From positions 1 to 37,138 of the IMG/VR virus record IMGVR_UViG_3300038829_000053: 37,138 bases of DNA, one strand, 5' to 3'. How positions within the stretch are numbered: position 1 is the first letter of the stretch; each line of letters opens with the position of its first letter. Below the pieces are notes generated by a model. It was not told the DNA's origin, ran no database searches, and worked only from the letters and a program-made list of their open reading frames with translations. The translations under genes were made by a program, and so were the position numbers. The stretch is from a virus. Shown here one piece after another: positions 4,982 through 36,903 of this stretch.

Positions 4982-5638
4982 TCATATCTCAACAACCGCC
5001 GATGTGCGGTTCTTCTTCATGAACGCCGATAATGCTCCAATTCTCTCCTCTAATTGCACTGCGGTCGTTATGGTCGGCGCGTACTTGCTCCCGTGAACCG
5101 CGACGGCCGCCTTGATGGCGTTCCTCGCCTTGTCGAACCCGATGCTCTGCACTACGCGCTGTAAGGCCGCACGCTGACTCTTGTTGGCGAACATACGTGC
5201 GTAGGACGGATTGACCGGCTTGAACTCCTCGATGAGGTCGTTGAGCGGATTGATATTCGGTGCGATCACACCGTCGAGAGATCTACCTTCTTTTTTCAAT
5301 ACAGTCACTGCTTTTTCAATTTCCGCACTTGTCACAAAAAGATTCTGTGTCTTCTCCTCCACCGGCTCTGAAGTGTACGCGAGATGATACTCCATCCGGC
5401 CACTCGGGAGCCGGCGACGCTCGAGCAACTTCGCGCGCTCCAGTTCCTTGAGTACGCGGAATACGATATCCTTGCTTTCCTTACATTCATCAGCGATCCG
5501 CGCGGCCGCGAAATCCCAATCGTCCGGCTTCGAGAAAAGATACGCGTACAGGCCCTTATCTTTCAACGATAAATCTGGTCGCGAGAGTACCTCGTTGGCG
5601 ACCATGGTGAACGGAACATTTGCCTTCGACAGCTTCAT
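4982..5638 (-). CDS. Winged-helix DNA-binding protein, possible replication initiator/organizer (218 aa)
   Basis: N-terminal pattern PFTMVANEVL...LSLKDKGLYAYL...DWDF...IADECKESKDIVFRVLKELERAKLLERRR is typical of phage Rep/DnaD-like wHTH domains. ATGA overlap with the upstream gene. Confidence 0.5.
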   Translation of the reverse strand: MKLSKANVPFTMVANEVLSRPDLSLKDKGLYAYLFSKPDDWDFAAARIADECKESKDIVFRVLKELERAKLLERRRLPSGRMEYHLAYTSEPVEEKTQNLFVTSAEIEKAVTVLKKEGRSLDGVIAPNINPLNDLIEEFKPVNPSYARMFANKSQRAALQRVVQSIGFDKARNAIKAAVAVHGSKYAPTITTAVQLEERIGALSAFMKKNRTSAVVEI

Positions 5639-6165
5639 GTTGATTTCATTATACCTTGTCTGTTAATGGAGTTATCCACTCCCGACCCGCGCGGCCTCCG
5701 ATTATTTGACTGCTCCTTCGGAGTCGCCCATCGGCAGTTTTTCTTTGAATATCCCTTATCGTTGTCAATGCGATCGAGTGTCATCCCAGCAGGTCGATCG
5801 CCCATATCCCTATAGAATCTCTCGAACTTCGACCACTCCTTGCACACCTTGATTCCCCTGTCGCCGTAATACTTATATTCTCGGTACTGCGGTTTATTGC
5901 ATCGATAAAACATTGCACACCACGTCTGATAAATCGGAGTACCCGACATCCCATGGGTTGTCTTCGTTTTTATTCGACTCTCGATAAGAAGACATCCGCA
6001 CGATCTCTTGTGGCCATTCCTCAAATTGACACCTTGAGTCTTCGTGACTTTCCCGCAATCGCATAGGCATGCATACATGAATTGCCCAGCATTCCCTTTC
6101 TCTGAAAGTGCCTTGGTGACGGTCAATCGACCGAATCGTTTACCCTCTAATAGTATTCTCTGCAT
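5635..6165 (-). CDS. HNH-like/homing-endonuclease-related DNA-binding protein (176 aa)
   Basis: GKRFGRLTV...CLCDCG...SCGC N-terminal Cys cluster and LDRIDNDKGYSKKNCRWATPKEQSNN C-terminal motif. This is a common free-standing phage gene family. Confidence 0.6.
   Translation of the reverse strand: MQRILLEGKRFGRLTVTKALSEKGNAGQFMYACLCDCGKVTKTQGVNLRNGHKRSCGCLLIESRIKTKTTHGMSGTPIYQTWCAMFYRCNKPQYREYKYYGDRGIKVCKEWSKFERFYRDMGDRPAGMTLDRIDNDKGYSKKNCRWATPKEQSNNRRPRGSGVDNSINRQGIMKST
5648..5653 (-). promoter_or_regulatory. Putative -10 box G-TATAAT, 9 nt upstream of ATG 5638
   Basis: The minus strand reads aagGTATAATgaaatcaacATG. The box is embedded in the 3' end of the upstream gene. Confidence 0.4.
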
Positions 6166-6171
6166 ACATAT

Positions 6172-6180
6172 ATACTACCA
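6172..6180 (-). promoter_or_regulatory. Putative extended -10 box TGG-TAGTAT, 6 nt upstream of ATG 6165
   Basis: The minus strand reads gtgaTGTGGTAGTATatatgtATG. Confidence 0.5.
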
Positions 6181-6185
6181 CATCA

Positions 6186-6656
6186 CTAACTCGGTAAATA
6201 ACCCAATTCGGCAGCTGTGGGGACAACAATTTCCAATTCCTCACAGTAGGACAAGTCCCGCTCGATGAGCTCCACGCATTCCGACTTCATCAGGTCGCCA
6301 TTCTCTGAAATCGACTTGCGTACCATAATAGTCTGCCCTCCAATTGTCACTGGTTTTTCTCCGAATACTATCCTCATCAGAGCATCGTGCATTTCTTCTT
6401 TTGTATACCCACAATGCTCCGCCAAATATCCGACCAAAGTCCAGTGATACCGCAACTGCGAATCACTCCGCATGTATCGCATCTCCGAGAACGTTGCCGA
6501 CACTTTCTTGCCGACCGGGAACCGCGAAATGCACGCATTGAGGTGATGAATGGATTTCGGCACGAACCGTTTGCGACCATCGACCTGCTTCACCTCTCCG
6601 ATGACGGAGAAGAGTACGCGCTTCTTGGGGATGCTTTTTTTCTTATTGTATTGCAT
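6186..6656 (-). CDS. NinB/Orf-like recombination mediator (tentative; 156 aa)
   Basis: RSDSQLRYHWTLVGYLAEHCGYTKEEMHDALM... resembles the RSxxQNxxxW...G...E pattern of lambda NinB. It sits in a recombination gene neighbourhood. Confidence 0.4.
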   Translation of the reverse strand: MQYNKKKSIPKKRVLFSVIGEVKQVDGRKRFVPKSIHHLNACISRFPVGKKVSATFSEMRYMRSDSQLRYHWTLVGYLAEHCGYTKEEMHDALMRIVFGEKPVTIGGQTIMVRKSISENGDLMKSECVELIERDLSYCEELEIVVPTAAELGYLPS

Positions 6657-7017
6657 GGCGTAATGGTACTCCCGGCGCTCCGTACTTCTCGTTCAGATAC
6701 TTTTTCATTCGCTCGTAGTTGACGACCTTCGACAATGCTGCCAGCTCCTCCTCGGTCGCGCGGTTCACCGCGATCCATACGTTGATTTCTTTCACGAGTC
6801 CGGGTCCCGAGTGCGCCCACCAGCAGAGTGGTACGATTGCGAACTTCTTCTGCACCTGTCTGCCTGCGAATATGAGTGCGTGTTCCCATTCGATGAGTTT
6901 GCCTGTGCGCGGGTCCGCGCCACACGAATGGTCTGCGAGTGTAGTGCGCCGTAGACATGTCTTATACTGCGGGTCATTCGCGCACTCTTCGCGGAGTTTG
7001 GGTGGCATGTTGTTCAT
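6643..7017 (-). CDS. Hypothetical Cys/His-rich protein (124 aa)
   Basis: ATGA overlap at 7014-7017. Contains an EWEHALIF...VPLCWWAH motif (possibly HNH-like; not assigned). Confidence 0.6.
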   Translation of the reverse strand: MNNMPPKLREECANDPQYKTCLRRTTLADHSCGADPRTGKLIEWEHALIFAGRQVQKKFAIVPLCWWAHSGPGLVKEINVWIAVNRATEEELAALSKVVNYERMKKYLNEKYGAPGVPLRHAIQ

Positions 7018-9167: not shown

Positions 9168-9168
9168 A

Positions 9169-9336: not shown

Positions 9337-9338
9337 AT

Positions 9339-10172: not shown

Positions 10173-10437
10173 GGTCTTCCTTCTTAATTGGTAATCCGAA
10201 AATCTCACGCGCACCACCTGCTTTGTCCTCGTTGGCATACCTGATAACTGTATGCCCGAGTACACTCTGCACCTTTGCGAGAACATCCATACTGCCTGTT
10301 GGCTCTCCTACGCACACGCGGTGTTTTCCATCGACAATCAAGTCGAATCCATCCACCTCACGCGAGCGTTCGGATACGGCGTACCCTGAACACCAGAGTC
10401 TCCGTTTGACGATATTGATTATGTTTATTTTCGTCAT
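10111..10437 (-). CDS. Hypothetical protein (108 aa from ATG 10437)
   Basis: ATG 10437 lies 6 nt downstream of TATAAT. GYAV...DGFDLIVDGKHRVCVGE faintly resembles a PD-(D/E)XK/Hjc-type core (not assigned). The 3' end overlaps the annealase start by about 60 nt. Confidence 0.5.
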   Translation of the reverse strand: MTKINIINIVKRRLWCSGYAVSERSREVDGFDLIVDGKHRVCVGEPTGSMDVLAKVQSVLGHTVIRYANEDKAGGAREIFGLPIKKEDHGKKNRKEVTPKGSGKEVSA

Positions 10438-10443
10438 AAATCC

Positions 10444-10449
10444 ATTATA
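10444..10449 (-). promoter_or_regulatory. Putative -10 box G-TATAAT, 6 nt upstream of ATG 10437
   Basis: The minus strand reads atgagGTATAATggatttATGacg. Confidence 0.5.
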
Positions 10450-10505
10450 CCTCATTAATAATCTGCAACTGTGAAGTTATCCACTCCCTCGAGATTCGCA
10501 GACCG

Positions 10506-10773: not shown

Positions 10774-10793
10774 AGTTCTACGAACCTCAAAGA

Positions 10794-11313: not shown

Positions 11314-11315
11314 AC

Positions 11316-11729: not shown

Positions 11730-12431
11730 TTATTTTGTCCATACTTCAAGTGATGTAATTCGGGTAAGGAACCACTTGTCTAGGGAGTCAACGAGTTTCT
11801 TTTCAGCCGACCACGCCGACCACGCCGCCGACCTCGCCGCCGACCTCGCCGCCGACTCCGCCGACCACGCCGCCGACCTCGCCGCCGACCTCGCCGCCGA
11901 CCTCGCCGCCGACTCCGCCGACCACGCCGACCACGCCGCCGACCTCGCCGCCGACTCCGCCGACCTCGCCGCCGACCTCGCCGCCGACTCCGCCGACCTC
12001 GCCGCCGACCACGCCGCCGACTCATTTGCTTTTGTCGGCTCTGCTAACCACTTCTTAGCTGCTTCTATTGCATCACGCGGACGGGAGTCATTTGGATAGA
12101 CCTGTTCATAATTCTTAATGCACGACTCCGCTGCGAAAATAGAAAACGCAACTGAGTCCGCTTTCTTCCAGTGATAGGCTTTCACGATTCTCATATCAGA
12201 CCAACACTCTTTGTCGTCTTGAATATCGGAATCACCTTTGACTTCTACTTCGGCAAGTATTTCACCTTGAACATATCCTAGAGCCTGCAGAGGAGTCTTT
12301 GATGCGTGAAAACCCAAGTTGCAAATGTCTACTTTATCTTCGTGATACCACTCGCCCACTTTCCACTCGTGATTTCCTGAATCACTTTTGAGTCCAGTGC
12401 GGAGGAACTTATATAGTTTTTTAGTTTTCAT
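11730..12431 (-). CDS. Two-domain protein with an Ala-rich tandem repeat (233 aa from ATG 12431): N-terminal C-x-x-GFHA domain plus Imm5-like P-x-D-x-RPR-x-AIEAA helical repeat domain
   Basis: The ORF-track start is TTG 12533, whereas ATG 12431 is ATGA-coupled to an upstream micro-ORF. Motifs: ICNLGFHASKTPLQALGY; YPNDSRPRDAIEAAKKWL, followed by about 20 SAAR/SAAW/SAE units. Confidence 0.75.
   Translation of the reverse strand: MKTKKLYKFLRTGLKSDSGNHEWKVGEWYHEDKVDICNLGFHASKTPLQALGYVQGEILAEVEVKGDSDIQDDKECWSDMRIVKAYHWKKADSVAFSIFAAESCIKNYEQVYPNDSRPRDAIEAAKKWLAEPTKANESAAWSAARSAESAARSAARSAESAARSAAWSAWSAESAARSAARSAARSAAWSAESAARSAARSAAWSAWSAEKKLVDSLDKWFLTRITSLEVWTK
11806..12024. repeat. Imperfect 12-nt/9-nt tandem repeat (GCCGCCGAC-CTC/TCC/CAC and GCCGAC-CAC/CTC), about 20 units
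   Basis: Read directly from the sequence. It is in frame within 11730..12431. Several frames on both strands stay open across it, which creates spurious ORFs 11780..12025, 11803..12012 and 11416..12099. Confidence 0.95.
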
Positions 12432-12508
12432 ATCTCCGAGAGGATTACCGTCACGATTCCGATAAACACGACCATGAAGAAGAAACTGAAGATTGTGTCG
12501 CGCGTCAT
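12428..12508 (-). CDS. Micro-ORF D, hydrophobic peptide (26 aa)
   Basis: MTRDTIFSFFFMVVFIGIVTVILSEI. ATGA overlaps at both ends. Confidence 0.35.
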   Translation of the reverse strand: MTRDTIFSFFFMVVFIGIVTVILSEI

Positions 12509-12573
12509 AGGAGTATCCATCCGATGATGACAATTAACCAAAAAGCAAAGTATGTCTTTTCAACTGTACTCAT
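12505..12573 (-). CDS. Micro-ORF C, hydrophobic peptide (22 aa)
   Basis: MSTVEKTYFAFWLIVIIGWILL. ATGA overlaps at both ends. Confidence 0.35.
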   Translation of the reverse strand: MSTVEKTYFAFWLIVIIGWILL

Positions 12574-12793: not shown

Positions 12794-12890
12794 ACTCCTT
12801 TGAGTGATTATTAACCGGCTCTCGCCGTACAACCACTATAACATAAAAGATTACTGATATATAACTACAATGGCTACCTGTGGACAAAGT

Positions 12891-12898
12891 ATATTACA
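12891..12898 (-). promoter_or_regulatory. Putative -10 box TG-TAATAT for the 12793-downstream operon
   Basis: The minus strand reads gtggTGTAATATacTTTGTCCACAGGTAGCC. The predicted transcription start falls at the TTGTCCACAGG motif. Confidence 0.4.
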
Positions 12899-12931
12899 CC
12901 ACATTTCTATAAAATACCCTCATTGCACTGG

Positions 12932-12968
12932 TGCAAGGAGGCTTTTCTGCAAGGAGGTGTTTCTGCAA
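12932..12968. repeat. 16-bp direct repeats (2.3 copies), iteron/operator-like
   Basis: tgcaaggaggcttttc / tgcaaggaggtgtttc / tgcaa. They are overlapped by the palindrome TTGCAC-tg-GTGCAA (12923-12936). A third AAGGAGG lies at 12980-12986. Confidence 0.7.
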
Positions 12969-13016
12969 CCATAAGTAATAAGGAGGGACACAAAATAAAA
13001 CGTATCTTTATAGCAA

Positions 13017-13038
13017 AATGCCCTCTTTCGAGGACATT
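13017..13038 (-). terminator. Hairpin terminator candidate (second of a tandem pair)
   Basis: The minus-strand RNA reads AAUGUCCUC-GAAA-GAGGGCAUU followed by UUGCUAU. The stem contains a G.U pair only on the minus-strand transcript (C.A on the plus strand), which supports minus-strand function. Confidence 0.5.
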
Positions 13039-13086
13039 CTGCTTATCGAAGGATGCTCACCATAGCTGATGGGCAAAATAGTGGTT

Positions 13087-13113
13087 GTGCCTACTTACGG
13101 GGTGGTACGGCAC
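13087..13113 (-). terminator. Hairpin terminator candidate after the last virion-module gene
   Basis: The minus-strand RNA reads GUGCCGUAC-caccccguaa-GUAGGCAC (8 bp with one bulge), followed by aaccacUAUUUUG. Confidence 0.45.
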
Positions 13114-13135
13114 TAACCAATCCCCAGCCACCTCC

Positions 13136-13390
13136 CTACCCAATGTTCCCGAGTGGAGTGACCACTTCTCCCTGACTGTTACTGAAGAAGTTCTTGGTCA
13201 TATAGGTCACGAAACCGATCACCGCGCCATTGATCGCGAGGTTCAATATCTCGCCCCAGTTCGCATTGAAGAGGTCGAACCCAGGCGTCTGAAACGCCGC
13301 CGCGATCGGCAGAGCGAATCCCGCGAGAACCGCCATAACAAGACCCTTCTGCACGTCGCTCAAATTCAGTCTGAATATTCCGCTGCTCAT
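13136..13390 (-). CDS. Small membrane protein, holin-like (84 aa, two hydrophobic segments)
   Basis: GLVMAVLAGFALPIAAAF and ILNLAINGAVIGFVTYM segments. Confidence 0.55.
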   Translation of the reverse strand: MSSGIFRLNLSDVQKGLVMAVLAGFALPIAAAFQTPGFDLFNANWGEILNLAINGAVIGFVTYMTKNFFSNSQGEVVTPLGNIG

Positions 13391-13487
13391 GATGTGAATG
13401 TTATCAATAACAATCTGACCGCGCTACTACCGAGTGGGGACAGTCTGAATTATTCCGTTGCATTTTGAACAATGTTTCATGTCCCAC

Positions 13488-13493
13488 ATTGTA
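13488..13493 (-). promoter_or_regulatory. Putative -10 box G-TACAAT, 7 nt upstream of an ATG (13480)
   Basis: The minus strand reads tgtgGTACAATgtgggacATGaaa. The ATG opens a 17-codon ORF (MKHCSKCNGIIQTVPTR, 13427..13480) ahead of the 84-aa gene. Confidence 0.4.
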
Positions 13494-13506
13494 CCACATA
13501 AACATT

Positions 13507-17198: not shown

Positions 17199-18678
17199 AC
17201 ACTTTGATCACTGTCCCAATCGGTGTATTGAATCCACCCCCACATTGGCTCCAAGTGATCTGCGTTATCTGAGCTGAAGTGTTATTCCATACACCGCTTC
17301 CGTTATAGTAATCTGGTGCATGAGCACCTGAATCGCTGGCTGTACCTTGAGCAATTATTGATTTCCGTTTTGCAGATGGATTGTTTATGTCGGCAATTAT
17401 ATATGCGTCGGTCGTAGTAGCATTACCAAAACCCAATTGAAATAACGTCACATCAGAATTGATATTTCTTAAAATATTGTTTACGAATTGCTTGCTTGCA
17501 TATTTCGCGGTCGCGTCGCTGTTGAATTGCATACAAAAATTATCATGCGTCGCACCCGGCACATACACAACCACCTTTAAATTGTCATATGCCGCGAAAG
17601 AAGTCGTACTTGCAAACAGCATAGTCGCAGTCGTCGTAGTAGATATGAGTGGTACGCCGCTAATCGTCGCCCAAGATAGGTTCCCGCTCCCGTCATTTTG
17701 AAGAGAAGTTCCGGCTGACTGTGAAGTAGGAAAAACATACGCAAGCGAATTAAGTGTAAGATTCTTGACCGAAGAAGCGGCTATATTTATAGCACCAGTG
17801 AAGGTGAAGTTTGCAGTTAAATCAATCCATGCTTGCTTAATCTTTCCTGTCAAATCTGCGATGACACTACATCCAGCACCGGCCGTTCCGGTATATCCTG
17901 TTGCGCATCCGTACTGAGGTGTATCAGTTGCGTTCTGCGCCTGCATTACATACGGAGTATTAACCGTCGTTGGTGTAGACGACGCCGCTTGCAGAGCAGT
18001 CGCGAGTCGAACGAGGCCAGTTACGGATTCACTTGAGGTTGCTCCACCAGCAAGGACTCCGCTATCGACATATGTTTTGTCGACAATCTGCGTCCCGACT
18101 GAAAATGTCGGGTGCGATGTATATGAAAGTATATTCGGGAATGTGCCGATGCCGTTCACGATGCGCGAGAGAATCATCAGTTGAGGACCATCCGTTATCT
18201 TCACTGAAGCCCCGCGCCGGTGGCTCTTTTTTAGAGTTGCCACAGTGGTCGTACCAGTGATGACGGATACTCCACGTGTCATATTCGTACATGCCGTGCT
18301 TGTACAATCGGCCAGCACCATTTCCTGTGAAGCGGTACCCTCGTCGATGATGAACGCATAGGTGCTTGATGCGAGCGTAGTACCTGCAAGATCGGAAGCC
18401 GATGTGAGGGTCATCGATGTCGCGCTTGACGATATGGCACTCGCAAGTGAAGTTCCGAAGAGGGCGATGCTTGTCGGTACGTCGTTAGTGGCGCCAAGCA
18501 TCTGCTGTGCCTTTAGAGTAGAGAACTCATCTTGCACCTTCATGAATTCATTCCATATCGTTGCGGTCTCGATTTTAGTCGCATACGGCTGGAGATTAAC
18601 CGGCGGAGTGAAAAGACCAGAGAACATCAGTGAGATTCCCGAAACTATCACTGCGATGGCGGATAGGAGAGTGCTCAT
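17185..18678 (-). CDS. Tail fibre/spike-like protein with an N-terminal hydrophobic anchor (497 aa from ATG 18678)
   Basis: The ORF-track start is TTG. ATG 18678 lies 6 nt downstream of TATAAT. N-terminus MSTLLSAIAVIVSGISLMFSGLF. Ser/Thr/Gly-rich beta-type composition. Confidence 0.55.
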   Translation of the reverse strand: MSTLLSAIAVIVSGISLMFSGLFTPPVNLQPYATKIETATIWNEFMKVQDEFSTLKAQQMLGATNDVPTSIALFGTSLASAISSSATSMTLTSASDLAGTTLASSTYAFIIDEGTASQEMVLADCTSTACTNMTRGVSVITGTTTVATLKKSHRRGASVKITDGPQLMILSRIVNGIGTFPNILSYTSHPTFSVGTQIVDKTYVDSGVLAGGATSSESVTGLVRLATALQAASSTPTTVNTPYVMQAQNATDTPQYGCATGYTGTAGAGCSVIADLTGKIKQAWIDLTANFTFTGAINIAASSVKNLTLNSLAYVFPTSQSAGTSLQNDGSGNLSWATISGVPLISTTTTATMLFASTTSFAAYDNLKVVVYVPGATHDNFCMQFNSDATAKYASKQFVNNILRNINSDVTLFQLGFGNATTTDAYIIADINNPSAKRKSIIAQGTASDSGAHAPDYYNGSGVWNNTSAQITQITWSQCGGGFNTPIGTVIKVYGTN

Positions 18679-18684
18679 GGCGTT

Positions 18685-18690
18685 ATTATA
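18685..18690 (-). promoter_or_regulatory. Putative -10 box TG-TATAAT, 6 nt upstream of ATG 18678
   Basis: The minus strand reads accTTGTATAATaacgccATGagc. Confidence 0.5.
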
Positions 18691-18726
18691 CAAGGTTTAT
18701 AAAATAAATGAAGTGTTGTCCACATA

Positions 18727-20623: not shown

Positions 20624-21310
20624 TTAGTAGTTCGGTATGTCTACAACATCCGCTGGCGTGAACTCGTTGCCCGACCGCAACGGCGTGGAACTGTTACCGA
20701 ATAACTTCATCCGGCGCTTCGTATCCCAAGAAATCATCGCGTTGTAGAGTTCGCGGTGCGCGGCGTTTAGATACGGCACTTGCTGACGAGCGATATCATC
20801 CGCATCGATGCCTCCGAGATGCATGGCAGCCATGTCGAATGCGATGATGGGCACGAACCGCGCCGGCCATACGATCGTGGTAGTGAGTGCTTTCTGTGCC
20901 GTTGAAAGCCCAACGAGAGATGTCGGGAGTCGTTTATACCATAGATAAATCGTCTGCGCCGATCCGCCAGTGAAGACTATCTTTTTGTTGAGATAGTCGA
21001 TAGAGTATCGATTCATCGCGCCGATGTGATTGAGCACATCCTCATACGGAGACGGTAGGTATTCGTTCTGGCCGCCGGCGCCACCGAACACCCTGTATGG
21101 TTCCTCAAAGTCTGCCGGAAGCGAGTGTTGTGTCTGCCACGTATCGTTCGCGCCTTGCGTAATGCTTGAATCGAGCTTCATCAAAAATGTCCATGCACGC
21201 ATGTCATTTCTTTTTGAGTACGCGACATCTGCGAGAACTGATTCAGTTACGGTGTCCACTTCATCGTCTACCAAGTCACGAAAAAAGGTCATTAGGTCGT
21301 CGTATGACAT
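20624..21310 (-). CDS. Tail/adaptor structural protein (228 aa)
   Basis: Assigned by position. TAAaATG junction with the downstream gene. Confidence 0.5.
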   Translation of the reverse strand: MSYDDLMTFFRDLVDDEVDTVTESVLADVAYSKRNDMRAWTFLMKLDSSITQGANDTWQTQHSLPADFEEPYRVFGGAGGQNEYLPSPYEDVLNHIGAMNRYSIDYLNKKIVFTGGSAQTIYLWYKRLPTSLVGLSTAQKALTTTIVWPARFVPIIAFDMAAMHLGGIDADDIARQQVPYLNAAHRELYNAMISWDTKRRMKLFGNSSTPLRSGNEFTPADVVDIPNY

Positions 21311-22188
21311 AGTCGTAGTTTATCGAATAAAGTGGCGAATGGCGATACTATCCGAGTGAAGAACGTCTTGCTTTTCTCTGCTTCTACCACCGCTTTCTCC
21401 GCATCCTCCCTCGGCATATCGAGGAAAGTGAATGCTCCGAATGTGAACGCTTGATTCAGTGCCTCTCGCTTAATCCAGAAAATACCATTGTCGCCGATGG
21501 ATTTGCCGTTTGAGAGTTGCAGTTTGATGTAGTCCCCGCGCCAGCCGAATGCTTTGACCGCATGCCCGAATGTCTGACCGGACGGCGCTGTCTCGATTGT
21601 GGGACCGTCGTAGGTCCATACCGATCGCCAGTTGCATCCGGTAAAGATTGACCGCTTCTCGTTACGCGTTTGCCACATCGCACTGCGCATGTTATCGAAT
21701 ACGTCGCCGGGACCATCTACTGTAAAGAACGTTTTCTTAGCATGCTTTTTAGCTTCCTCTTTTTCATCCTGCGTAAAAGGATAAGTCGCCGCCCACTCAC
21801 GATCCTCTTGCGTTGCAGGATTAGTGATCTTCGATAAATCCTTTGCCTCGAGGAATCCCCAAGGCCCCTCCTTTCGAAGCATGGCCGACTTACAGGCCGA
21901 CCGCAGGTCCGCCCCCCACTCCGCAGGATTGCCCGTTATAGACTTCGTGGAGCCAAATGTGAAGAAAGGGTCAAGTGCCACTCCTTCCTCGTCCTCTGAC
22001 ACAGCAGTGAGGGCGTAGGCGGTGCACATATCAGTCTGCCCTTGATCCTTGATTATAAGTGGCTTTGCAACTTCATACTCATCCGGCAAGTCCGTTGGAA
22101 CCGCATTCCCTACCACCGCGCCGAGCTTGAAATCGCGCTCGTCTACAGGTGTCGGCCAGAGTGAATTGGTAGGGTGTTTCATGTTCAT
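21292..22188 (-). CDS. Papain-like C1 cysteine peptidase, paralogue of the lysin catalytic domain (298 aa)
   Basis: DERDFKLGA...IIKDQGQTDMCTAYAL (Gln six residues before the Cys) and FGHAVKAFGW...LSNGKSIGDNGIFWI (His/Asn region). ATGA overlap with the upstream 87-aa membrane protein. Confidence 0.7.
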   Translation of the reverse strand: MNMKHPTNSLWPTPVDERDFKLGAVVGNAVPTDLPDEYEVAKPLIIKDQGQTDMCTAYALTAVSEDEEGVALDPFFTFGSTKSITGNPAEWGADLRSACKSAMLRKEGPWGFLEAKDLSKITNPATQEDREWAATYPFTQDEKEEAKKHAKKTFFTVDGPGDVFDNMRSAMWQTRNEKRSIFTGCNWRSVWTYDGPTIETAPSGQTFGHAVKAFGWRGDYIKLQLSNGKSIGDNGIFWIKREALNQAFTFGAFTFLDMPREDAEKAVVEAEKSKTFFTRIVSPFATLFDKLRLCHTTT

Positions 22189-29101: not shown

Positions 29102-29227
29102 TTATGTATAACGTCGCACACTCTTCTTGCCCTTATCGACCCTACCCTTCGGCATCATCTTTTTGGTCGGAGTGCCGACCATTCCTTTCATCCTCTCTGG
29201 TACAACTCTTTTCATTATGTTCATCAT
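29102..29227 (-). CDS. Possible very basic, Met-rich micro-protein (41 aa, below cutoff)
   Basis: Translated by hand as MMNIMKRVVPERMKGMVGTPTKKMMPKGRVDKGKKSVRRYT. No Shine-Dalgarno sequence. It fills an otherwise empty 143-nt gap. Confidence 0.25.
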   Translation of the reverse strand: MMNIMKRVVPERMKGMVGTPTKKMMPKGRVDKGKKSVRRYT

Positions 29228-29233
29228 AGCAGT

Positions 29234-29605
29234 TTACTCTTCGCTCGGGGCGTTATCCCCAAGCTGTCCGTCCAATTCTTCGTCGAGTGTTTTTTCTATA
29301 CTCTCAATCGTCTGGTCGACATCGAAGAATGAAAGTATCCATCGCACCTCACCTCGTCGTGCGAAATATGCGTGGCGCTTAATCTCTTCGAGGTCTTCCT
29401 TGTTCGACAAGATAAGCGAGTACTGCCGCTCTCGATCGCGCAGGGTCTTGAGCAGTAATTTGAACGCCGGATGATCGCCGAGATTCTTCTTGAGCGATGC
29501 GGTCTTGAGGGCTTTTTGCATCGCTTGCACAGCGCTCTGCTGGTCTGGCCTGTAATTATCAAGTTGCTCCACCAACTTTGACATCTTGATATCGACGTTG
29601 CTCAT
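29234..29605 (-). CDS. Hypothetical protein (123 aa)
   Basis: ATGA overlap with the HNH-AP2 gene stop. Confidence 0.6.
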   Translation of the reverse strand: MSNVDIKMSKLVEQLDNYRPDQQSAVQAMQKALKTASLKKNLGDHPAFKLLLKTLRDRERQYSLILSNKEDLEEIKRHAYFARRGEVRWILSFFDVDQTIESIEKTLDEELDGQLGDNAPSEE

Positions 29606-30072
29606 ACTCGTGAAAAGTTACCGTGGTATTTAATACACGCTTCTACATACGCTTCGTGAGCATCAAATTTTGATACGAAAAGTCCGATATTGACCTTCTT
29701 CCCGTTCGTCATTATTTCAACCCTCCACTTTCCAGTAGCCTTATGAAGGCACACACCTTTGAATCCAGATGTATTGTCCTTATGCATTTTCACGTTTCTG
29801 GTATTTTCCGCATGAGTGCATACTCTCAAATTACTGCGCTGGTTATTCAACCCATCGCCATCGATGTGGTCAGTGTCCATTCCTTCCGGAGTCTCCATGA
29901 TCTCGCGATGCATTTTTACCGAAGTAGCCTTCCCTTTAATTCGCTTGGTATTGCGCGATGCATAAAATGTACTTCCGTCTTTTCGTGCATTCCATTTGTG
30001 CAACCTTAACCATTCAAAATCTTTGTCGTCTACGAGGGCGTATTTTCCTTGCGATAGTGGTATTTGTTTCAT
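29602..30072 (-). CDS. HNH endonuclease with C-terminal AP2-type DNA-binding domain (homing-endonuclease type; 156 aa)
   Basis: DTDHIDGDGLNNQRSNLRVCTHAENTRN (HNH_3-like) followed by SGFKGVCLHKATGKWRVEIMTNGKKVNIGLFVSKFDAHEAYVEA (AP2-like). Clearly more AT-rich than the flanking portal gene. Confidence 0.85.
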   Translation of the reverse strand: MKQIPLSQGKYALVDDKDFEWLRLHKWNARKDGSTFYASRNTKRIKGKATSVKMHREIMETPEGMDTDHIDGDGLNNQRSNLRVCTHAENTRNVKMHKDNTSGFKGVCLHKATGKWRVEIMTNGKKVNIGLFVSKFDAHEAYVEACIKYHGNFSRV

Positions 30073-32200: not shown

Positions 32201-32549
32201 GTTGTGTGAAAAGCTGTCGCCAGAATGCTGGGCTCACGAATCTACGAAAATCTCGATGATACGGCTCCTGCCCTCCGTTCTCTGTCTTCATCTCTTGGCT
32301 CTTCTCGAGGTACTCGAGCTCGAACGCCATGTACTCCTCCGAGAGCTTTGATGATGCGATGTCGTGCGCGGCATCCAATCCGTCCTGCTTATCTTTGTAC
32401 ACGTCCCGAATCTCCTGCACCTTTTCTCTCTGCCACGTTGATACCATGTGCGATGCATAAAATTGCTGAAGCTTCTTTGACAACGCGACCGCTGGCTTCT
32501 TCGCCTCCTCGGCTCGTCTCGCACGTGAAGCTCGTGAGATGTTACCCAT
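32184..32549 (-). CDS. Hypothetical protein (121 aa from ATG 32549)
   Basis: The ORF-track start is TTG 32606, inside a hairpin. ATG 32549 lies 7 nt downstream of TACAAT. Confidence 0.5.
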   Translation of the reverse strand: MGNISRASRARRAEEAKKPAVALSKKLQQFYASHMVSTWQREKVQEIRDVYKDKQDGLDAAHDIASSKLSEEYMAFELEYLEKSQEMKTENGGQEPYHRDFRRFVSPAFWRQLFTQHGQEV

Positions 32550-32556
32550 TGCCTCT

Positions 32557-32562
32557 ATTGTA
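32557..32562 (-). promoter_or_regulatory. Putative -10 box G-TACAAT, 7 nt upstream of ATG 32549
   Basis: The minus strand reads gtcaaGTACAATagaggcaATGggt, just downstream of the hairpin at 32606-32632. Confidence 0.45.
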
Positions 32563-32605
32563 CTTGACCGATAGTGAAAGCGATAGTGGGGCTGTGTATA
32601 ACGCA

Positions 32606-32632
32606 AACGCCCCGAGCTGGTGGCGGGGCGTT
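32606..32632 (-). terminator. Strong 9-bp hairpin (terminator/attenuator candidate) between the terminase and portal units
   Basis: AACGCCCCG-(9 nt)-CGGGGCGTT, followed on the minus strand by UGCGUUAU (weak U-tract). Confidence 0.5.
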
Positions 32633-32635
32633 GTG

Positions 32636-32764: not shown

Positions 32765-32808
32765 CTGATTCTTACTCTTGAGATGCCGGTAGATTCCTGC
32801 GACGTAAG

Positions 32809-34461: not shown

Positions 34462-34462
34462 G

Positions 34463-34825: not shown

Positions 34826-35403
34826 GGCGCTGTGTTCTTCTGAATGAGATGGTCAATCGCCTTTCGTTCCTCTTCCGTGAGTCCCTCGCCGATGTCGCCG
34901 GGATGCTCGATGCCGAGTTGCTCGCGCCAGTCCTCGACTATCTTCATATACGCGAGCATGCGCTGGGCATCACCTTCCTCAAGTCCCTTGCGGTAAAGCG
35001 ATGCCATAAGGTTCTTCGTGAGTGGCTTGAATGTGCGCTTGACCTCCGCGAGATAATCATTGCCGGTCTCAATATCTTTGCGCCATCGTGAGAGCGTTTG
35101 CGGTATCACTCCGAACTCATCTGCGAACTGTTGCATCGTAGATATTGCCAGCAACTGAATCGTGATGTTATCCGTGATGCCGAGCAACTCTGTGATTCGT
35201 TCTGGTTTACCTTTGAACGTATCCGGGAGCACGCACCACATTCTGAATACTTCCCTCGTGTGCTGTTTGCCCTCCTGCCTATTGCGCTCTCCAGCCGGCA
35301 TGTTCTTCTCCAGTTTCGCGAGCTCAAGCACTGATGGTGCTTCCTGCGGTGGTGGTGCCTTCTTAACCTTTTTCTTCACTGGCGAAGTCTTCTTCTTTTT
35401 CAT
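34822..35403 (-). CDS. HTH protein, small-terminase candidate (193 aa from ATG 35403)
   Basis: The ORF-track start is GTG 35418. ATG 35403 lies 6 nt downstream of TACAAT. TMQQFADEFGVIPQTLSRWRKD resembles a TerS N-terminal HTH. Confidence 0.5.
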   Translation of the reverse strand: MKKKKTSPVKKKVKKAPPPQEAPSVLELAKLEKNMPAGERNRQEGKQHTREVFRMWCVLPDTFKGKPERITELLGITDNITIQLLAISTMQQFADEFGVIPQTLSRWRKDIETGNDYLAEVKRTFKPLTKNLMASLYRKGLEEGDAQRMLAYMKIVEDWREQLGIEHPGDIGEGLTEEERKAIDHLIQKNTAP

Positions 35404-35409
35404 GATCGT

Positions 35410-35415
35410 ATTGTA
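35410..35415 (-). promoter_or_regulatory. Putative -10 box TG-TACAAT, 6 nt upstream of ATG 35403
   Basis: The minus strand reads tagTGTACAATacgatcATGaaa, directly after the stop of the 173-aa gene. Confidence 0.5.
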
Positions 35416-35417
35416 CA

Positions 35418-35939
35418 CTACCCATTCACGTACTCTTCATAACTGATTGACTTACGAATGCACATCACATCATCTAAATCGAAACCTTTCTCCGAGGATA
35501 TACCATCGGCGGTCATGCCCTGCGATGACATTGTCTTGATGGTGTCGTAAGAGGATCGACTGAAACGCATCTTGCCGGAACCGCTTCTCTTTGGTGTGAA
35601 GTCGTCCACGATGCCATTTTTCACTACGGGACCATTGATATTTATTCCGATGCCTCCCATCTCCTTGCACCATTTGAAATGGCGAGTGCCGGTGGAACCG
35701 CAACACTCCTTCGTGGTGAACCTGCCTGACTTCGGTTTATCGCCCAGCACACTTCCGACGGTCTTGCGTGCTACCTTCACCACTTCCTTCGGGACATCAA
35801 CGCCGGACGGCGCCGTGCCTGCCCTGATGAAAGCGTGCGCGAGTATCGTGTCTACAATCTCGTCCTGCGTGAGCTCGCGCTCGAATGCGCTCTCTCCCTG
35901 ATCATTGAAGATGGTGATGCTGCCCGAGTACTTGCTCAT
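35418..35939 (-). CDS. Hypothetical protein (173 aa)
   Basis: ATGA coupled to the upstream gene. Contains a CCGSTGTRHFKWC motif. No family recognised. Confidence 0.6.
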   Translation of the reverse strand: MSKYSGSITIFNDQGESAFERELTQDEIVDTILAHAFIRAGTAPSGVDVPKEVVKVARKTVGSVLGDKPKSGRFTTKECCGSTGTRHFKWCKEMGGIGININGPVVKNGIVDDFTPKRSGSGKMRFSRSSYDTIKTMSSQGMTADGISSEKGFDLDDVMCIRKSISYEEYVNG

Positions 35940-36208
35940 ACCAGTATTCCCCTACTCCTGAACATCGAAATAACCTGCTCGCGCGAGTTAGCGAAATATT
36001 GCTTCTCTTTGCCCGACACTCTGAACTGAACGCCTTGCCATCTGCGTGATGCGCGGTTAGCTGGGCGACCTTCTTTCTGTGTTCTCTCTGACAATGAACC
36101 GGGCGTTGGCTCGCTAACGGCATGTTTAATATGCTGATACTTTGCTGAATGTTTTACACTACATACACTGCATGATGCTCTCTCTTCGTCGGTTGAGCAG
36201 TAACTCAT
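35936..36208 (-). CDS. Hypothetical Cys-containing protein (90 aa)
   Basis: ATGA coupled on both sides. Confidence 0.55.
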   Translation of the reverse strand: MSYCSTDEERASCSVCSVKHSAKYQHIKHAVSEPTPGSLSERTQKEGRPANRASRRWQGVQFRVSGKEKQYFANSREQVISMFRSRGILV

Positions 36209-36477
36209 ACCTCTGTGACTTCGTACCAGTCCGTCGCCACGAGATCAACCATGCTCGGCGACCACGTGCCGATTGATCCGTCTGCCCCGCACATATCGAT
36301 ATGCGCTCGATAGGTGACATCTGTGCCCTCCGGGAAGAACTTATTGAGCGGCGCGCGACTGACGGCGAACTTACTGCCGTCCACCAAAAACACATATCGC
36401 GCATTCTTCCACTCCCGACGTCCCCACGCTCCCCCTGCCTTGATGCCTGCTAATGCGATGCTGAAATCTGTTTCCAT
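36205..36477 (-). CDS. DUF2829-family protein (Tad2-like candidate anti-Thoeris sponge; 90 aa)
   Basis: DFSIALAGIKAGGAWGRREW at the N-terminus and GTWSPSMVDLVATDWYEV at the C-terminus match the DUF2829 signature (F..AL..lK.G....R..W ... W.pS..DLlA.DWe.v). Shine-Dalgarno GAAGGA upstream. Confidence 0.7.
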   Translation of the reverse strand: METDFSIALAGIKAGGAWGRREWKNARYVFLVDGSKFAVSRAPLNKFFPEGTDVTYRAHIDMCGADGSIGTWSPSMVDLVATDWYEVTEV

Positions 36478-36489
36478 ATGATCCTTCGA

Positions 36490-36888
36490 TTAGTGAATAC
36501 CAAAACGCTTGTAAAACCGATCGACGAGATCGCCGACCAGATAGCACAGTGCCTCCTCATTCTTCCCCGCCGATTCTGTCGTGCACTCCACGCTCTTGAT
36601 CTTGCGCCGCGCCAATACCGAGAATCCTGCGTGCGTCATCTCGTGTGCGACGTTCCCCCGAGTGAGATGTGGCTTTGAGAAGTAGATGATCGCCGCGTGA
36701 CCGGCCGGAATGAGATCCTTGTATGTGCAACAGTACGCCATCGTATTGTTCGCCACGCCACTCATGCTCCCCTTTGCCCCATCCTTGCGAATCGCATCGA
36801 GCATATCCCGCTGCGTTGCGTACACCCGGCACTCGACTTTCATCCGCGACCCGGTTGGATAAATCACATGGATGATGGGTGACCGCAT
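36490..36888 (-). CDS. Small HExxH zinc-metalloprotease-like protein (132 aa)
   Basis: Contains a GNVAHEMTHAGF motif. It is the first gene after the wrap-around spacer, and its ATG lies 6 nt downstream of TAGAAT. Confidence 0.6.
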   Translation of the reverse strand: MRSPIIHVIYPTGSRMKVECRVYATQRDMLDAIRKDGAKGSMSGVANNTMAYCCTYKDLIPAGHAAIIYFSKPHLTRGNVAHEMTHAGFSVLARRKIKSVECTTESAGKNEEALCYLVGDLVDRFYKRFGIH

Positions 36889-36894
36889 GCCTAC

Positions 36895-36903
36895 ATTCTA
36901 CCA
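36895..36903 (-). promoter_or_regulatory. Putative extended -10 box TGG-TAGAAT, 6 nt upstream of ATG 36888
   Basis: The minus strand reads TTGACAgggggctggcaTGGTAGAATgtaggcATG. A perfect TTGACA lies at 36915-36920, but with only a 14-nt spacer. Confidence 0.55.

Follow-up and report, generated by a model that had tools for sequence, protein, structure and literature searches.

Based on a recurrent box upstream of start codons, its statistical excess and its conservation at orthologous genes, the transcription units of an uncultured phage are likely driven by host extended -10 promoters of the sigma-70 type that would yield leaderless mRNAs. The window analyzed (the whole stretch of 37,138 nucleotides) is a complete phage genome of ~37.0 kb with a 127-bp terminal overlap, the genes of which all lie on the minus strand; the phage is podovirus-like, with a portal and an adaptor of the SU10 type. 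In the proposed mechanism, host RNA polymerase with a sigma-70-type factor would read promoters without a -35 element through the extended -10 sequence (T-G-n-T-A-n-n-A-T). At no fewer than 13 putative units, 6-7 nt (9 nt in two of them) separate the end of the hexamer from the ATG of the leading gene. By this geometry, initiation about 7 nt past the hexamer would coincide with the A of the ATG or precede it by 2-3 nt. Such an mRNA would possess neither a leader nor a Shine-Dalgarno (SD) site, and the ribosome would have to start on the 5'-terminal AUG, while later genes in the unit may be translated via stop-start overlap, a few SD sites or an SD-independent route.

The hexamer TANNAT occurs 96 times on each strand. 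On the gene strand, these copies are followed by an ATG at spacer 6 in nine cases and at spacer 7 in five, other spacers giving ~1-2, and a start-independent histogram of TANNAT-to-ATG spacers has no peak on the opposite strand. The 14 cases of TANNAT-6/7-ATG exceed the 3.79±1.88 (maximum 9) obtained from 300 first-order Markov simulations. TANNAT stands at spacer 6/7 before 9 of 49 gene-start ATGs, taken from a list curated with prior knowledge of the box sites, versus 5 of 668 other same-strand ATGs (Fisher p=2.4e-8), and GTANNAT before 7/49 versus 1/668; the original observation is real. Support independent of the curated list comes from the start-independent spacer histograms and from conserved N-termini in relatives. 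Across five related genomes, the first ATG of a long ORF has TANNNT at spacer 6 in 26 of 185 cases, with adjacent spacers at 5 or fewer, and TGnTANNNT boxes are followed by an ATG at spacer 6 in 19 of 66 cases. In more distant relatives (capsid 42-55% identical, 33-47% G+C) the spacer-6 peak is absent and there is at most a spacer-8 peak. A scan for standard -35/-10 promoters gave no excess. TANNAT is short and frequent enough for chance or base composition to be considered as its source, but none of the 300 simulations reached the observed count, the peak is strand-specific, and orthologous genes of four further genomes show the pattern too; together with the Fisher test, these results led to rejection of this exceedingly improbable origin.

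All eight boxes of the original prediction are present exactly as written when the minus strand is read, including GTACAAT-7-ATG at 32549, GTATAAT-6-ATG at 10437, GTATAAT-9-ATG at 5638 and (TG)GTACAAT-7-ATG at 13480. Their list was incomplete, and six sites (ATGs 29215, 21310, 13390, 6656, 4411 and 3713) were added, besides three leadered promoters described below. The leaderless-type sites, with their counterparts in related genomes (L numbers), are as follows.

36886..36903, minus strand: promoter A, TGG TAGAAT, 6 nt, ATG 36888 (TGGTAGAAT-6-ATG) of the first early gene (132 aa); TGGTA(G/A)AAT-6-ATG is kept in L025, L022 and L011.
35401..35418, minus strand: promoter B, GTG TACAAT, 6 nt, ATG 35403 ((G)TGTACAAT-6-ATG) of a 193-aa gene heading the unit of small and large terminase; in orthologues the ATG follows TAGGAT or TACGAT by 6 nt, and it is the start picked by the gene caller in L011 and L022.
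32547..32565, minus strand: promoter C, AAG TACAAT, 7 nt, ATG 32549 of a 121-aa gene preceding the portal gene; orthologues have TATGAT with 7 or 8 nt spacing.
29213..29231, minus strand: promoter D (added), TGC TATGAT, 7 nt, ATG 29215 of a 37-aa ORF, followed by an 87-aa gene and the scaffold and major capsid genes; the box TGCTATGAT also occurs in L025 and L011, there 6 nt from the ATG. The window retains this promoter and lacks the ~95-aa first gene.
21308..21325, minus strand: promoter E (added, weaker), CGA TAAACT, 6 nt, ATG 21310 of the SU10-type adaptor gene; TAGAAT, TAAGAT or TAAACT, 6 nt, ATG in L027, L026 and L028.
18676..18693, minus strand: promoter F, TTG TATAAT, 6 nt, ATG 18678 (TGTATAAT-6-ATG) of a 497-aa tail-fibre-like gene; TGA TACACT, 6 nt, ATG in three relatives.
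13478..13496, minus strand: micro-ORF box, TGG TACAAT (a perfect extended -10), 7 nt, ATG 13480 of a 17-codon micro-ORF.
13388..13406, minus strand: promoter G (added), TGA TAACAT, 7 nt, ATG 13390 of an 84-aa membrane protein gene; TAACAT, spacing and ATG are invariant in L028 and L022.
10435..10452, minus strand: promoter I, AGG TATAAT, 6 nt, ATG 10437 of a 108-aa gene heading the Rad52-type recombination unit; TATAAT-6-ATG also in L028, L022 and L011.
6654..6671, minus strand: candidate J (added, weak), GAG TACCAT, 6 nt, ATG 6656 of a NinB/Orf-like gene.
6163..6180, minus strand: promoter K, TGG TAGTAT, 6 nt, ATG 6165 (TGGTAGTAT-6-ATG) of a window-specific HNH endonuclease gene.
5636..5656, minus strand: promoter L, AGG TATAAT, 9 nt, ATG 5638 of a replication-initiator-like gene (HTH_36), with an expected leader of 2-3 nt; TATAAT-9-ATG is retained in L025 and L011.
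4409..4429, minus strand: promoter M (added), TGA TAGAAT, 9 nt, ATG 4411 of a window-specific HNH endonuclease gene; at this position relatives have TG(C)TA..AT, 6 nt, ATG before a methyltransferase gene.
3711..3728, minus strand: promoter N (added), TGC TACAAT, 6 nt, ATG 3713 of a 109-aa gene heading the lysis unit; TG(C/T)TATAAT-6-ATG in three relatives.

Comparison with four related genomes of uncultured phages shows that box, 6-7 nt spacing and ATG persist at orthologous genes despite diverged flanks. For 12 of 14 promoter groups the hexamer and ATG, and nearly always the spacing, are kept in three to four genomes, with hexamer positions 3-4 and the flanks variable; the other two groups consist of one site each. 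T1, A2 and T6 of the hexamer are retained together with the TG of the extended -10. Among 45 aligned family sites, of which orthologous ones are non-independent observations, the G of TGn is found in 36, its T in 25 and hexamer A5 in 39, and the -35 region carries no information. The conserved upstream base is therefore the G of TGnTAnnAT, one position beyond the hexamer-adjacent G of the original prediction, which holds for its own eight sites by construction and is found at only 21 of the 45. The start codon is ATG at all 45 sites; a pyrimidine at -1 (41/45 versus 126/158 other genes, p=0.056) is not site-specific.

Conservation of the N-termini reaches upstream beyond the starts that automatic gene callers had assigned. 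The N-terminus MG(N/R/A)ISR.SRA.RAEE of the promoter C gene is conserved beyond the called starts, that of the promoter F gene is likewise conserved (the tail-fibre-like protein in the protein collection is a 480-aa version with a start 17 codons too late), and MKLSKANVPF of the promoter L gene is retained in L025 and L011. The N-terminus M..EER.TMI of the promoter N gene occurs in three relatives, in two of which the start was called 8 codons too late. The 13480 micro-ORF, one of the eight ATGs listed originally, is not conserved: it sits in a window-specific insertion and has no counterpart in L022 or L028. Candidate J is of low confidence because no orthologue is available and GGAG lies 12 nt from its ATG.

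As had been claimed, no SD-like motif lies in the usual window at any of the eight starts; a GAGG is found 12 nt from ATG 10437. The box spacing equals the canonical distance from a -10 element to the transcription start, which counts for initiation at or near the ATG. Transcription starting at the ATG or within 1-3 nt of it, as originally proposed, is supported by this spacing, the conserved hexamer and TG and the ATG-only starts, with further support from upstream terminators, the failure to detect a phage-encoded polymerase or sigma factor and the precedent of Deinococcus and Actinobacteria. Promoters A and C and a leadered promoter at 1025 each come right after a terminator hairpin, and several boxes follow long gaps.

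36944..36961, minus strand: weak terminator-like hairpin with T-run upstream of promoter A (-7.8 kcal/mol, z -1.8); a clean GCCGCC...GGCGGTTTTTT hairpin occupies the matching place in L011.
32606..32632, minus strand: terminator-like hairpin ending the terminase unit, a 9-bp G+C-rich stem followed by TTTGCGTT (-14.9 kcal/mol, z -2.15).
1034-1066: strong bidirectional terminator directly before the 1025 promoter (-21.6 kcal/mol, z -5.75).

The idea that the boxes divide the genome into sensible units is roughly right: the early, terminase, portal, head, adaptor, fibre, recombination and replication units each begin with a box. The label "anti-defence cassette" has no Pfam or PHROGs support in the window. 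A relative carries a Tad2-like gene in its early region. The original prediction also counted eight plus-strand matches to ATT[GA]TAC, one of them inside the portal gene; there are in fact 10, of which seven are at gene starts or the 1025 promoter as described, two lie in the portal gene (30851 and 31562) and one in a 120-aa HTH gene (34781), and the other strand has 3 further matches.

The coexistence of two initiation modes was too simple a scheme. Leaderless and SD or overlap starts do exist, and among 57 starts 13 are leaderless-type, 16 overlap an upstream stop, 12 are SD-like (~4 strong) and 16 show nothing recognizable; more than half of the starts carry no leaderless box and no SD-like motif. 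Many internal genes initiate without SD behind A/T-rich sequence, so that an A/T-rich hexamer near the start could partly reflect a translation signal. Taken further, TANNAT would be not a promoter but an SD-independent translation signal, an A/U-rich, unstructured landing site for the ribosome or S1 in leadered polycistronic mRNAs, similar to the non-SD motif of GeneMarkS-2 group B genomes. About half of the phage genes, lacking both SD and -10 box, have upstream regions enriched in AATTA, ATTAA and TAACT, in line with such a signal, and the 16S rRNA of some Parcubacteria has no anti-SD motif (PMC9297842). Boxes B, E, L, M and N fall within the 3' end of the preceding gene or overlap it; read-through is therefore possible, and their ATGs may then also be translated inside a polycistronic mRNA. 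Yet an A/U-rich pad does not predict the conserved T1, A2 and T6 or the TG two positions upstream, the spacing is fixed at 6-7 nt, and the internal no-SD genes have no TAnnnT at a fixed position. With two boxes placed after terminator hairpins and several after long gaps, and with the upstream 9-mer described next, which also precedes leadered -10 boxes, a pure translation signal is unlikely.

About half of the leaderless ATGs have, starting 42-53 nt upstream, a DnaA-box-like 9-mer (TTRTNCACA) in one or the other orientation, a feature new to this analysis; family-wide, 27 of 97 copies fall in this range versus 1.6 expected.

36928..36936, minus strand: 9-mer of promoter A, TTGTGCACA, 48 nt upstream of ATG 36888; identical in L025 and inverted (CTATCCACA) in L011, 39 nt upstream of the L011 ATG.
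32593..32601, minus strand: 9-mer of promoter C, TTATACACA, 52 nt upstream of ATG 32549; each of the four genomes has it, at 51-53 nt.
29253..29261, plus strand: inverted 9-mer of promoter D, TTATCCCCA, 46 nt upstream of ATG 29215.
18716..18724, plus strand: inverted 9-mer of promoter F, TTGTCCACA, 46 nt upstream of ATG 18678; identical in L028, forward (G/A)TATGCACA at 51 nt in L026 and L027.
13435..13443, minus strand: degenerate 9-mer of promoter G, CTGTCCCCA, 53 nt upstream of ATG 13390; an invariant block in the three-genome alignment, left out of the 9-mer statistics because of two mismatches to TTATNCACA.
10477..10485, plus strand: inverted 9-mer of promoter I, TTATCCACT, 48 nt upstream of ATG 10437; perfect TTATCCACA in L022 and TTGTCCACA in L011, at 49-50 nt.
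5672..5680, plus strand: inverted 9-mer of promoter L, TTATCCACT, 42 nt upstream of ATG 5638.

The 9-mer is not confined to leaderless sites: it is found ahead of two extended -10 boxes with a leader and an SD-like site. The three leadered promoters are the following.

12835..12887, minus strand: 9-mer TTGTCCACA (12887-12879) and TGT TATAGT (12843-12835), with a conserved leader and AAGGAG site downstream; the L028 counterpart is TTATGCACA, 30 nt, TGGTAGAGT and the conserved leader.
1684..1727, minus strand: candidate, 9-mer TTACCCACA (1727-1719) and TGG TAGAGT (1692-1684), 51 nt to ATG 1632.
1025..1033, minus strand: GTG TATAAT, 26 nt to ATG 998, with the SD-like site AAAGGAAA.

Centred near -44 at about half of the promoters, the 9-mer is most likely a putative transcription factor binding site. 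Neither CPR genome loci nor more distant phages show an enrichment of its pairing with the -10 box; the pairing is therefore specific to this phage family. The promoters could accordingly be read by a phage-modified or phage-directed polymerase, with a phage activator on the 9-mer replacing -35 recognition, in the manner of MotA/AsiA at the middle promoters of T4; such a scheme would fit the missing -35 and the gene content of the phage, which includes several conserved small proteins without known function as well as HTH proteins. However, promoter A, the earliest, carries the 9-mer and has to fire ahead of all phage protein synthesis, about half of the promoters have no 9-mer, and the 9-mer sequence matches a host-type DnaA box rather than a novel one. 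No homologue of MotA, AsiA, gp39 or sigma was detected by Pfam or PHROGs in the window. In well-studied bacteria, extended -10 promoters work without an activator, and a phage-directed polymerase appears improbable.

Recognition of the extended -10 by the host's own polymerase is also in keeping with Pfam scans of the window ORFs, covering all large ones, which gave no hit to RNA polymerase or sigma factor domains; the sole sigma-region-4-like HTH belongs to a small protein beside the terminase gene. The host is probably a member of the Patescibacteria (CPR), because the cellular homologues of the endolysin-like gene are mostly in CPR genomes. Loci in CPR genome bins show TGnTAnnnT, then 6-8 nt, then the ATG of long ORFs, including genes for a GT2 glycosyltransferase and a cytosine methyltransferase.

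The grammar itself is already known as GeneMarkS-2 "group C" or the Deinococcus "-10-motif". In group C, predicted for Actinobacteria, a Pribnow box 6-8 nt from the start marks leaderless first genes (PMC6028130), and in Deinococcus TANNNT, invariant at T1, A2 and T6, is placed 6-7 bp before ORFs and has an experimentally documented promoter function (PMC12340547). Most middle and late mRNAs of the Thermus phage phiYS40 are leaderless (PMC3594737). The arrangement has been described before in Actinobacteria, Deinococcus and Thermus phages, whereas here it is shared by the members of a phage family with Patescibacteria (CPR) as probable hosts.

On the gene strand of the window, 9 of the 96 TANNAT hexamers are followed by ATG after a spacer of 6 nt and 5 after a spacer of 7 nt, with other spacers at about 1-2, and no spacer peak for TANNAT-ATG is present on the opposite strand. 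The 14 pairs with a 6- or 7-nt spacer compare with 3.8±1.9 in simulation (maximum 9 in 300 simulations), and among ATGs of the gene strand the box precedes 9 of the 49 at gene starts and 5 of the 668 remaining ones (p=2.4e-8). All eight boxes of the original prediction, which read them as leaderless promoters, are present as written, and the 13 leaderless-type sites now recognized in the window show no Shine-Dalgarno (SD)-like motif 3-11 nt from their ATG. The accompanying by-eye count of eight ATT[GA]TAC matches was wrong: the plus strand holds 10, of which seven are at gene starts or the promoter near 1025, two are in the portal gene and one is in a 120-aa HTH gene. The following sites were added, the number after each box being the spacer to the ATG in nt.

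ATG 29215, minus strand: TGCTATGAT-7, a box common to the relatives and retained despite the absence of the unit's first gene
ATG 21310, minus strand: TAAACT-6, before the adaptor gene
ATG 13390, minus strand: TGATAACAT-7, invariant in three genomes
ATG 6656, minus strand: TACCAT-6, weak
ATG 4411, minus strand: TGATAGAAT-9
ATG 3713, minus strand: TGCTACAAT-6
1033-1025, minus strand: leadered extended -10 box before ATG 998
1692-1684, minus strand: leadered extended -10 box before ATG 1632
12843-12835, minus strand: leadered extended -10 box followed by a conserved leader

Leaderless-type sites stand at what would be the first genes of the early, terminase, portal, head, adaptor, fibre, recombination, replication and lysis modules. 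Terminator-like hairpins are located directly upstream of promoter A, before ATG 36888 (-7.8 kcal/mol), promoter C, before ATG 32549 (-14.9 kcal/mol), and the 1025 promoter (-21.6 kcal/mol; z -5.75). Two leaderless-type sites follow terminator hairpins and five overlap the preceding gene.

A search with the endolysin-like protein (2799-1732) and the fibre-like protein (18678-17185) retrieved four related uncultured phage genomes (L011+L027, 34.2 kb; L022+L026, 36.4 kb; L025, from a 19.3-kb contig; L028, from a 20-kb contig), which are syntenic with the window and encode proteins 31-94% identical to its own. In these related genomes, TANNNT with a spacer of 6 nt precedes 26 of 185 first ATGs of long ORFs, neighbouring spacers accounting for at most five each, and 19 of 66 TGnTANNNT boxes are followed by ATG at that same distance. 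The sites were arranged into 14 promoter groups, two of which hold one site each; the hexamer and the ATG, nearly always with their spacing, are kept in three to four genomes for 12 of the 14. The flanks and hexamer positions 3-4 vary among orthologous promoters, as in the 193-aa gene (TACAAT, TAGGAT, TAGGAT and TACGAT) and the fibre gene (TATAAT, TACACT, TACACT and TACACT). The micro-ORF at 13480, which had been counted among the predicted starts, has a perfect TGGTACAAT box but is unsupported as an ORF, because it sits in an insertion of ~80 nt missing from L022 and L028. At 29102-29231, the head unit of the window is without the ~95-aa first gene present in L025, L011 and L022; the TGCTATGAT promoter is kept and adjoins instead a 37-aa ORF, the C-terminus of which is similar to a DUF6496-type protein of the relatives.

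Across 45 aligned sites, the spacer is 6 nt in 34, 7 nt in six, 8 nt in one and 9 nt in four. A purine follows the hexamer at 41 sites, A5 is found at 39, and TG at -15/-14 (T in 25 of 45, G in 36 of 45, or 80%) corresponds to the classical extended -10, TGnTAnnAT; the G that had been placed directly beside the hexamer is there at only 21 sites. In extended -10 promoters the lack of a -35 element is made up for by a TG placed one base before the hexamer, and the -35 position of the 45 aligned sites has zero information content, conservation being confined to the 9-bp extended -10. This extent, instead of about 20 bp, together with the lack of a polymerase domain in Pfam scans of the ORFs, led to rejection of promoters for a T7-like single-subunit polymerase. 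A canonical sigma-70 -35/-10 architecture was likewise rejected, since a scan gave no more matches than shuffled sequences and none at the sites. TTGACA or TTGACG occurs 14 nt upstream of the hexamer in promoter A (36915-36920) and in three orthologues of promoter N (ATG 3713), and 10 nt upstream in promoter N of the window itself (3736-3741); the relatives concerned are L025, L022 and L011. As a -35 element this motif was discarded, because its spacer is too short and it is absent from the other promoters and from loci of the Candidate Phyla Radiation (CPR). A pyrimidine at -1 was not specific enough to serve as start-site evidence (p=0.056). Leaderless translation requires an ATG start, and ATG is the start codon at 45 of 45 aligned sites, the scan itself having selected for ATG. 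The distant relatives L001-L009 show no peak at a spacer of 6 nt and at most a peak at 8 nt with TGn boxes. The main rival explanation, in which the box acts as an A/U-rich translation signal within a leadered mRNA, is disfavoured by the TG extension and the -10-specific pattern of conservation, as well as by the fixed spacing and the terminators.

The leaderless starts also bear on annotation. In several leaderless groups, automatic gene calls in the relatives begin 8-17 codons downstream of the leaderless ATG (15715 versus 15745 in L011; 9057 versus 9081 in L022; 7462 versus 7507 and 9067 versus 9115 in L025), and the fibre protein of the collection has 480 aa, compared with 497 aa from the leaderless ATG (18627-18678). 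Yet the stretch from the leaderless ATG to the called start shows conserved residues, for example MG(N/R/A)ISR.SRA.RAEE, M..EER.TMI and MST(L/I)(L/F)SAIA. Such under-calling of starts is typical of leaderless genes (PMC6028130, PMC12340547). A systematic annotation error, affecting several genes in the relatives and in the protein collection, would thereby be fixed and, if the reading is true, nearly all promoters of an uncultured phage lineage, at least 16, would be mapped from sequence alone.

The first 127 bp of the window (1-127) recur exactly at 37012-37138 as a direct terminal repeat, which makes the window a complete phage genome of ~37.0 kb, circularly assembled or terminally redundant. 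Its G+C content is 51%, and the minus strand carries every convincing ORF. No nucleotide match to the window was found among deposited phages, and for terminase and capsid the identity to any of them does not exceed about 30%, so that no cultured relative or host is available. Pfam and PHROGs recognized a Rad52-family protein, a NinB/Orf-like protein, a replication-initiator-like HTH_36 protein and two papain-like/PG_binding_1 cell-wall hydrolases. Other genes are as follows.

32200-30077, minus strand: SU10-type portal (Pfam/PHROGs)
21310-20624, minus strand: SU10-type adaptor (Pfam/PHROGs)
34500-32809, minus strand: large terminase-sized ORF, with an HTH protein alongside (Pfam/PHROGs)
29602-30072: HNH endonuclease gene, absent from relatives
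5635-6165: HNH endonuclease gene, absent from relatives
3710-4411: HNH endonuclease gene, absent from relatives

The three HNH endonuclease genes, likewise recognized with Pfam and PHROGs, are probably homing insertions, and in two of them (ATG 6165 and 4411) an extended -10 box of their own adjoins the ATG. The first early protein (36490-36888; 132 aa; phrog_1365), 92% identical in L025, carries an HExxH motif (HEMTH) and may be a small metallopeptidase. Neither Pfam nor PHROGs gave any confirmation of the "anti-defence" label that the early genes had received. A 267-aa protein with a TTG start (11730-12533) combines DUF7666 and Imm5-like domains with a long run of SAARSAESAARSAAWSA-type repeats, and the relatives encode no homologue of it.

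Pfam scans of the ORFs, all large ones included, detected no RNA polymerase or sigma factor domain, and scans of the window found neither tRNAs nor Rfam matches. Given the failure to detect a polymerase or sigma factor of the phage, and the textbook form of the extended -10 element, the most economical model, and a likely one, is that the host sigma-70-type holoenzyme would make a leaderless mRNA for the first gene of each unit. A hexamer ending 6 nt before the ATG would direct initiation ~7 nt downstream, at the A of the ATG, and a 9-nt spacer would yield a leader of 2-3 nt.

Among 57 starts, 13 are leaderless-type, 16 overlap an upstream stop (ATGA and similar), 12 are SD-like and 16 show nothing recognisable, and only about four of the 12 SD-like motifs are strong. 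The proposal that two modes of initiation coexist thus understated the SD-independent share. Approximately 16 genes, including those for the portal, the capsid and several tail proteins (starts at 32200, 29605, 27669, 26393, 25665, 25233, 20622, 15735, 9167 and others), have no SD, stop-start overlap or -10 box. Their upstream sequences are A/T-rich, with AATTA, ATTAA and TAACT enriched 5-6 fold and TTCACA located 4-6 nt before the ATG at several of them, which suggests that an SD-independent internal initiation may operate there. As a general start signal, CACAG/TTCACA was not retained: CACAG has 54 copies on the gene strand with no enrichment near starts, and seven copies at most 70 nt from a start are close to the 10% expected, only the full 9-mer described below being significant.

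Several features related to SD sequences were observed beside these classes. A cassette of four small genes (20-1066; 64, 97, 92 and 67 aa) lies behind a strong bidirectional terminator and a leadered TGTATAAT promoter; SD-like sites are present at three of its four starts, two of them AAAGGAG, in which it differs from the rest of the genome, and none of its genes has a homologue in any relative. This cassette looks like a recently acquired moron. The sequence AAAGGAGGTGAT (37034-37045, minus strand; also 1-33, plus strand) is a 12-nt perfect complement of the canonical 16S rRNA 3' end; 9 nt after it, or 13 nt after its GGAGG core, comes the ATG of a 40-aa ORF of doubtful status. Because this ORF overlaps the terminator and promoter A, AAAGGAGGTGAT is probably not an ordinary ribosome-binding site. 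A non-coding region of ~340 nt (12800-13136, minus strand), partly conserved in L028 and L022, includes a terminator-like hairpin and the only three copies of the anti-SD-like CCTCCT on the gene strand (12986, 12957 and 12941, within 46 nt), two of which form a direct repeat, CCTCCTTGCA. The region could be an origin, an RNA or a set of protein-binding repeats.

A 9-mer, (G)TT(A/G)TNCACA, recurs upstream of the promoters in both orientations; its consensus, (G)TT(A/G)T(C/G/A)CACA, cannot be told apart from that of the relaxed DnaA box, TTATNCACA. When the DnaA-box consensus itself was searched with at most one mismatch, 27 of 97 matches in the five genomes started between 25 and 75 nt before a leaderless ATG, most of them at 45-53 nt, against 1.6 expected (p about 2e-25, uncorrected for shared ancestry). 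In the window alone, 6 of 25 matches are so placed, against 0.45 expected (p=4e-6). Copies near promoters of the window, which are conserved in the relatives, are as follows.

36928-36936: 9-mer before ATG 36888
32593-32601: 9-mer before ATG 32549
29253-29261: 9-mer before ATG 29215
18716-18724: 9-mer before ATG 18678
10477-10485: 9-mer before ATG 10437
5672-5680: 9-mer before ATG 5638
1719-1727: 9-mer before the leadered box at 1692
12879-12887: 9-mer before the leadered box at 12843, conserved in L028
36987-36995, plus strand: perfect TTATCCACA, 107 nt upstream of the first early ATG

In addition, ATG 13390 is preceded at 53 nt by an invariant but degenerate copy, CTGTCCCCA. Twenty-two copies upstream of leaderless starts in the five genomes were aligned, and two more stand before leadered promoters of the window; the information is limited to a 9-10-mer, and the element spans about -48 to -40, directly upstream of the -35 location and in a typical activator position. 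The occurrence of the 9-mer also with leadered promoters further disfavours the reading of the box as an A/U-rich translation signal. The element resembles DnaA boxes in its consensus and in its use of both orientations, DnaA binding being putative; unlike the boxes of DnaA-box origins, the copies in the window show no origin-type clustering but are scattered, each promoter concerned having a single one whose distance from the ATG is fixed at 42-53 nt. Neither CPR genome loci nor the more distant phages show any enrichment of the 9-mer paired with the -10 box, and the pairing therefore belongs to the phage family of the window and is no general host promoter element. The presence of a 9-mer at the first early promoter argues for a host factor, or for a repressing role. 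By its constant spacing from half of the promoters, the 9-mer may link the host replication initiator, or another factor, to phage transcription.

The assignment of a host depends on the endolysin-like protein. The terminase query had no match in 185,579 species genomes. The endolysin-like protein (1732-2799) consists of a papain-like N-terminal part and PG_binding_1, and a profile of its family matched nine loci (L013-L021), whose titles name Candidatus Kaiserbacteria, Tayloriibacteriota, Taylorbacteria, Saccharibacteria, Peribacteria, "uncultured bacterium" (three loci) and Stellaceae (one locus). One "uncultured bacterium" locus is on the 687-kb contig CAWKPH010000001.1 and also has weak homologues of three tail genes. 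Genome-encoded members of the family are almost all in Patescibacteria bins, on which basis a host among the Patescibacteria seems reasonably likely. In the CPR loci, a clean TGnTAnnnT followed after 6-8 nt by the ATG of long ORFs was found, for example at cellular-type genes for a GT2 glycosyltransferase and a cytosine methyltransferase and at the endolysin homologues themselves, the signal in the spacer histogram being modest. CPR ribosomes are reduced and often lack the anti-SD. The anti-SD motif is undetectable in about half of Parcubacteria (PMC9297842), in keeping with a phage in which SD sites are seldom used. A literature search retrieved no relevant report of leaderless transcription in CPR, Patescibacteria or Saccharibacteria. 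The fusion of a -10 box to ATG, known from Actinobacteria and Deinococcus-Thermus, would then also be a feature of CPR phages and probably of CPR genomes. Tentatively, and with considerable doubt, almost the whole programme of the phage family could be imagined to run from composite promoters (9-mer at ~-44, no -35, extended -10 and start codon at +1) in a probable Patescibacteria (CPR) host, leaderless early, structural and recombination transcription being coupled to host DnaA, or DnaA being titrated; leaderless initiation from the -10 alone would then be general, and so far undescribed, in CPR.

Comparable arrangements are known in bacteria and in other phages. The leaderless cI mRNA made from lambda PRM begins with the A of its AUG, an activator being bound near -42; lambda has one such leaderless gene, versus at least 13 predicted in the window phage, and the upstream element of the latter resembles a DnaA box, not a phage repressor operator. 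In T4 middle promoters, which depend on the MotA and AsiA proteins, a MotA box centred at -30 is combined with a sigma-70 -10, frequently extended. The logic in the window is similar, in that a 9-bp box would take the place of the -35 next to a -10; a T4-type middle promoter was rejected for the window, because its box is centred near -44 and has a different sequence, and no MotA or AsiA homologue was found with Pfam or PHROGs. Middle and late promoters of the Thermus thermophilus phages phiYS40 and P23-45 have no -35 and rely on a -10 or extended -10. Most middle and late mRNAs of phiYS40 are leaderless (PMC3594737). The window phage would also use host RNA polymerase on -10-type promoters to give leaderless transcripts, but it has no sequence relationship to these phages and no detected homologue of the Thermus-phage RNA-polymerase-binding proteins, and its leaderless starts are in all temporal modules, the first early gene included.

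The closest parallels are the group C genomes of GeneMarkS-2, which belong to Actinobacteria and Deinococcus-Thermus and in which a Pribnow box lies 6-8 nt from the start of leaderless first genes (PMC6028130), and the experimentally supported "-10-motif" of Deinococcus, TANNNT at 6-7 bp upstream of ORFs (PMC12340547). Shared with them are TANNNT located 6-8 nt upstream of the start codon of genes that would here be the first of their operons, invariant T1, A2 and T6, the absence of an SD at these genes with ribosome-binding sites at others, and starts that are called late. In contrast to them, the window is a phage genome with 51% G+C and a probable Patescibacteria host lineage, TGn is unusually frequent (80%), an extra 9-mer is present near -44 at about half of the sites, and most non-leaderless genes have no SD. 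The basic leaderless mechanism has therefore already been described, and the core finding is a known grammar. What is new is its occurrence in an uncultured family of SU10-like phages whose host is probably a CPR bacterium, its density, with about 13 of 16-17 predicted promoters leaderless, and the coupling of leaderless promoters to a DnaA-box-like 9-mer.
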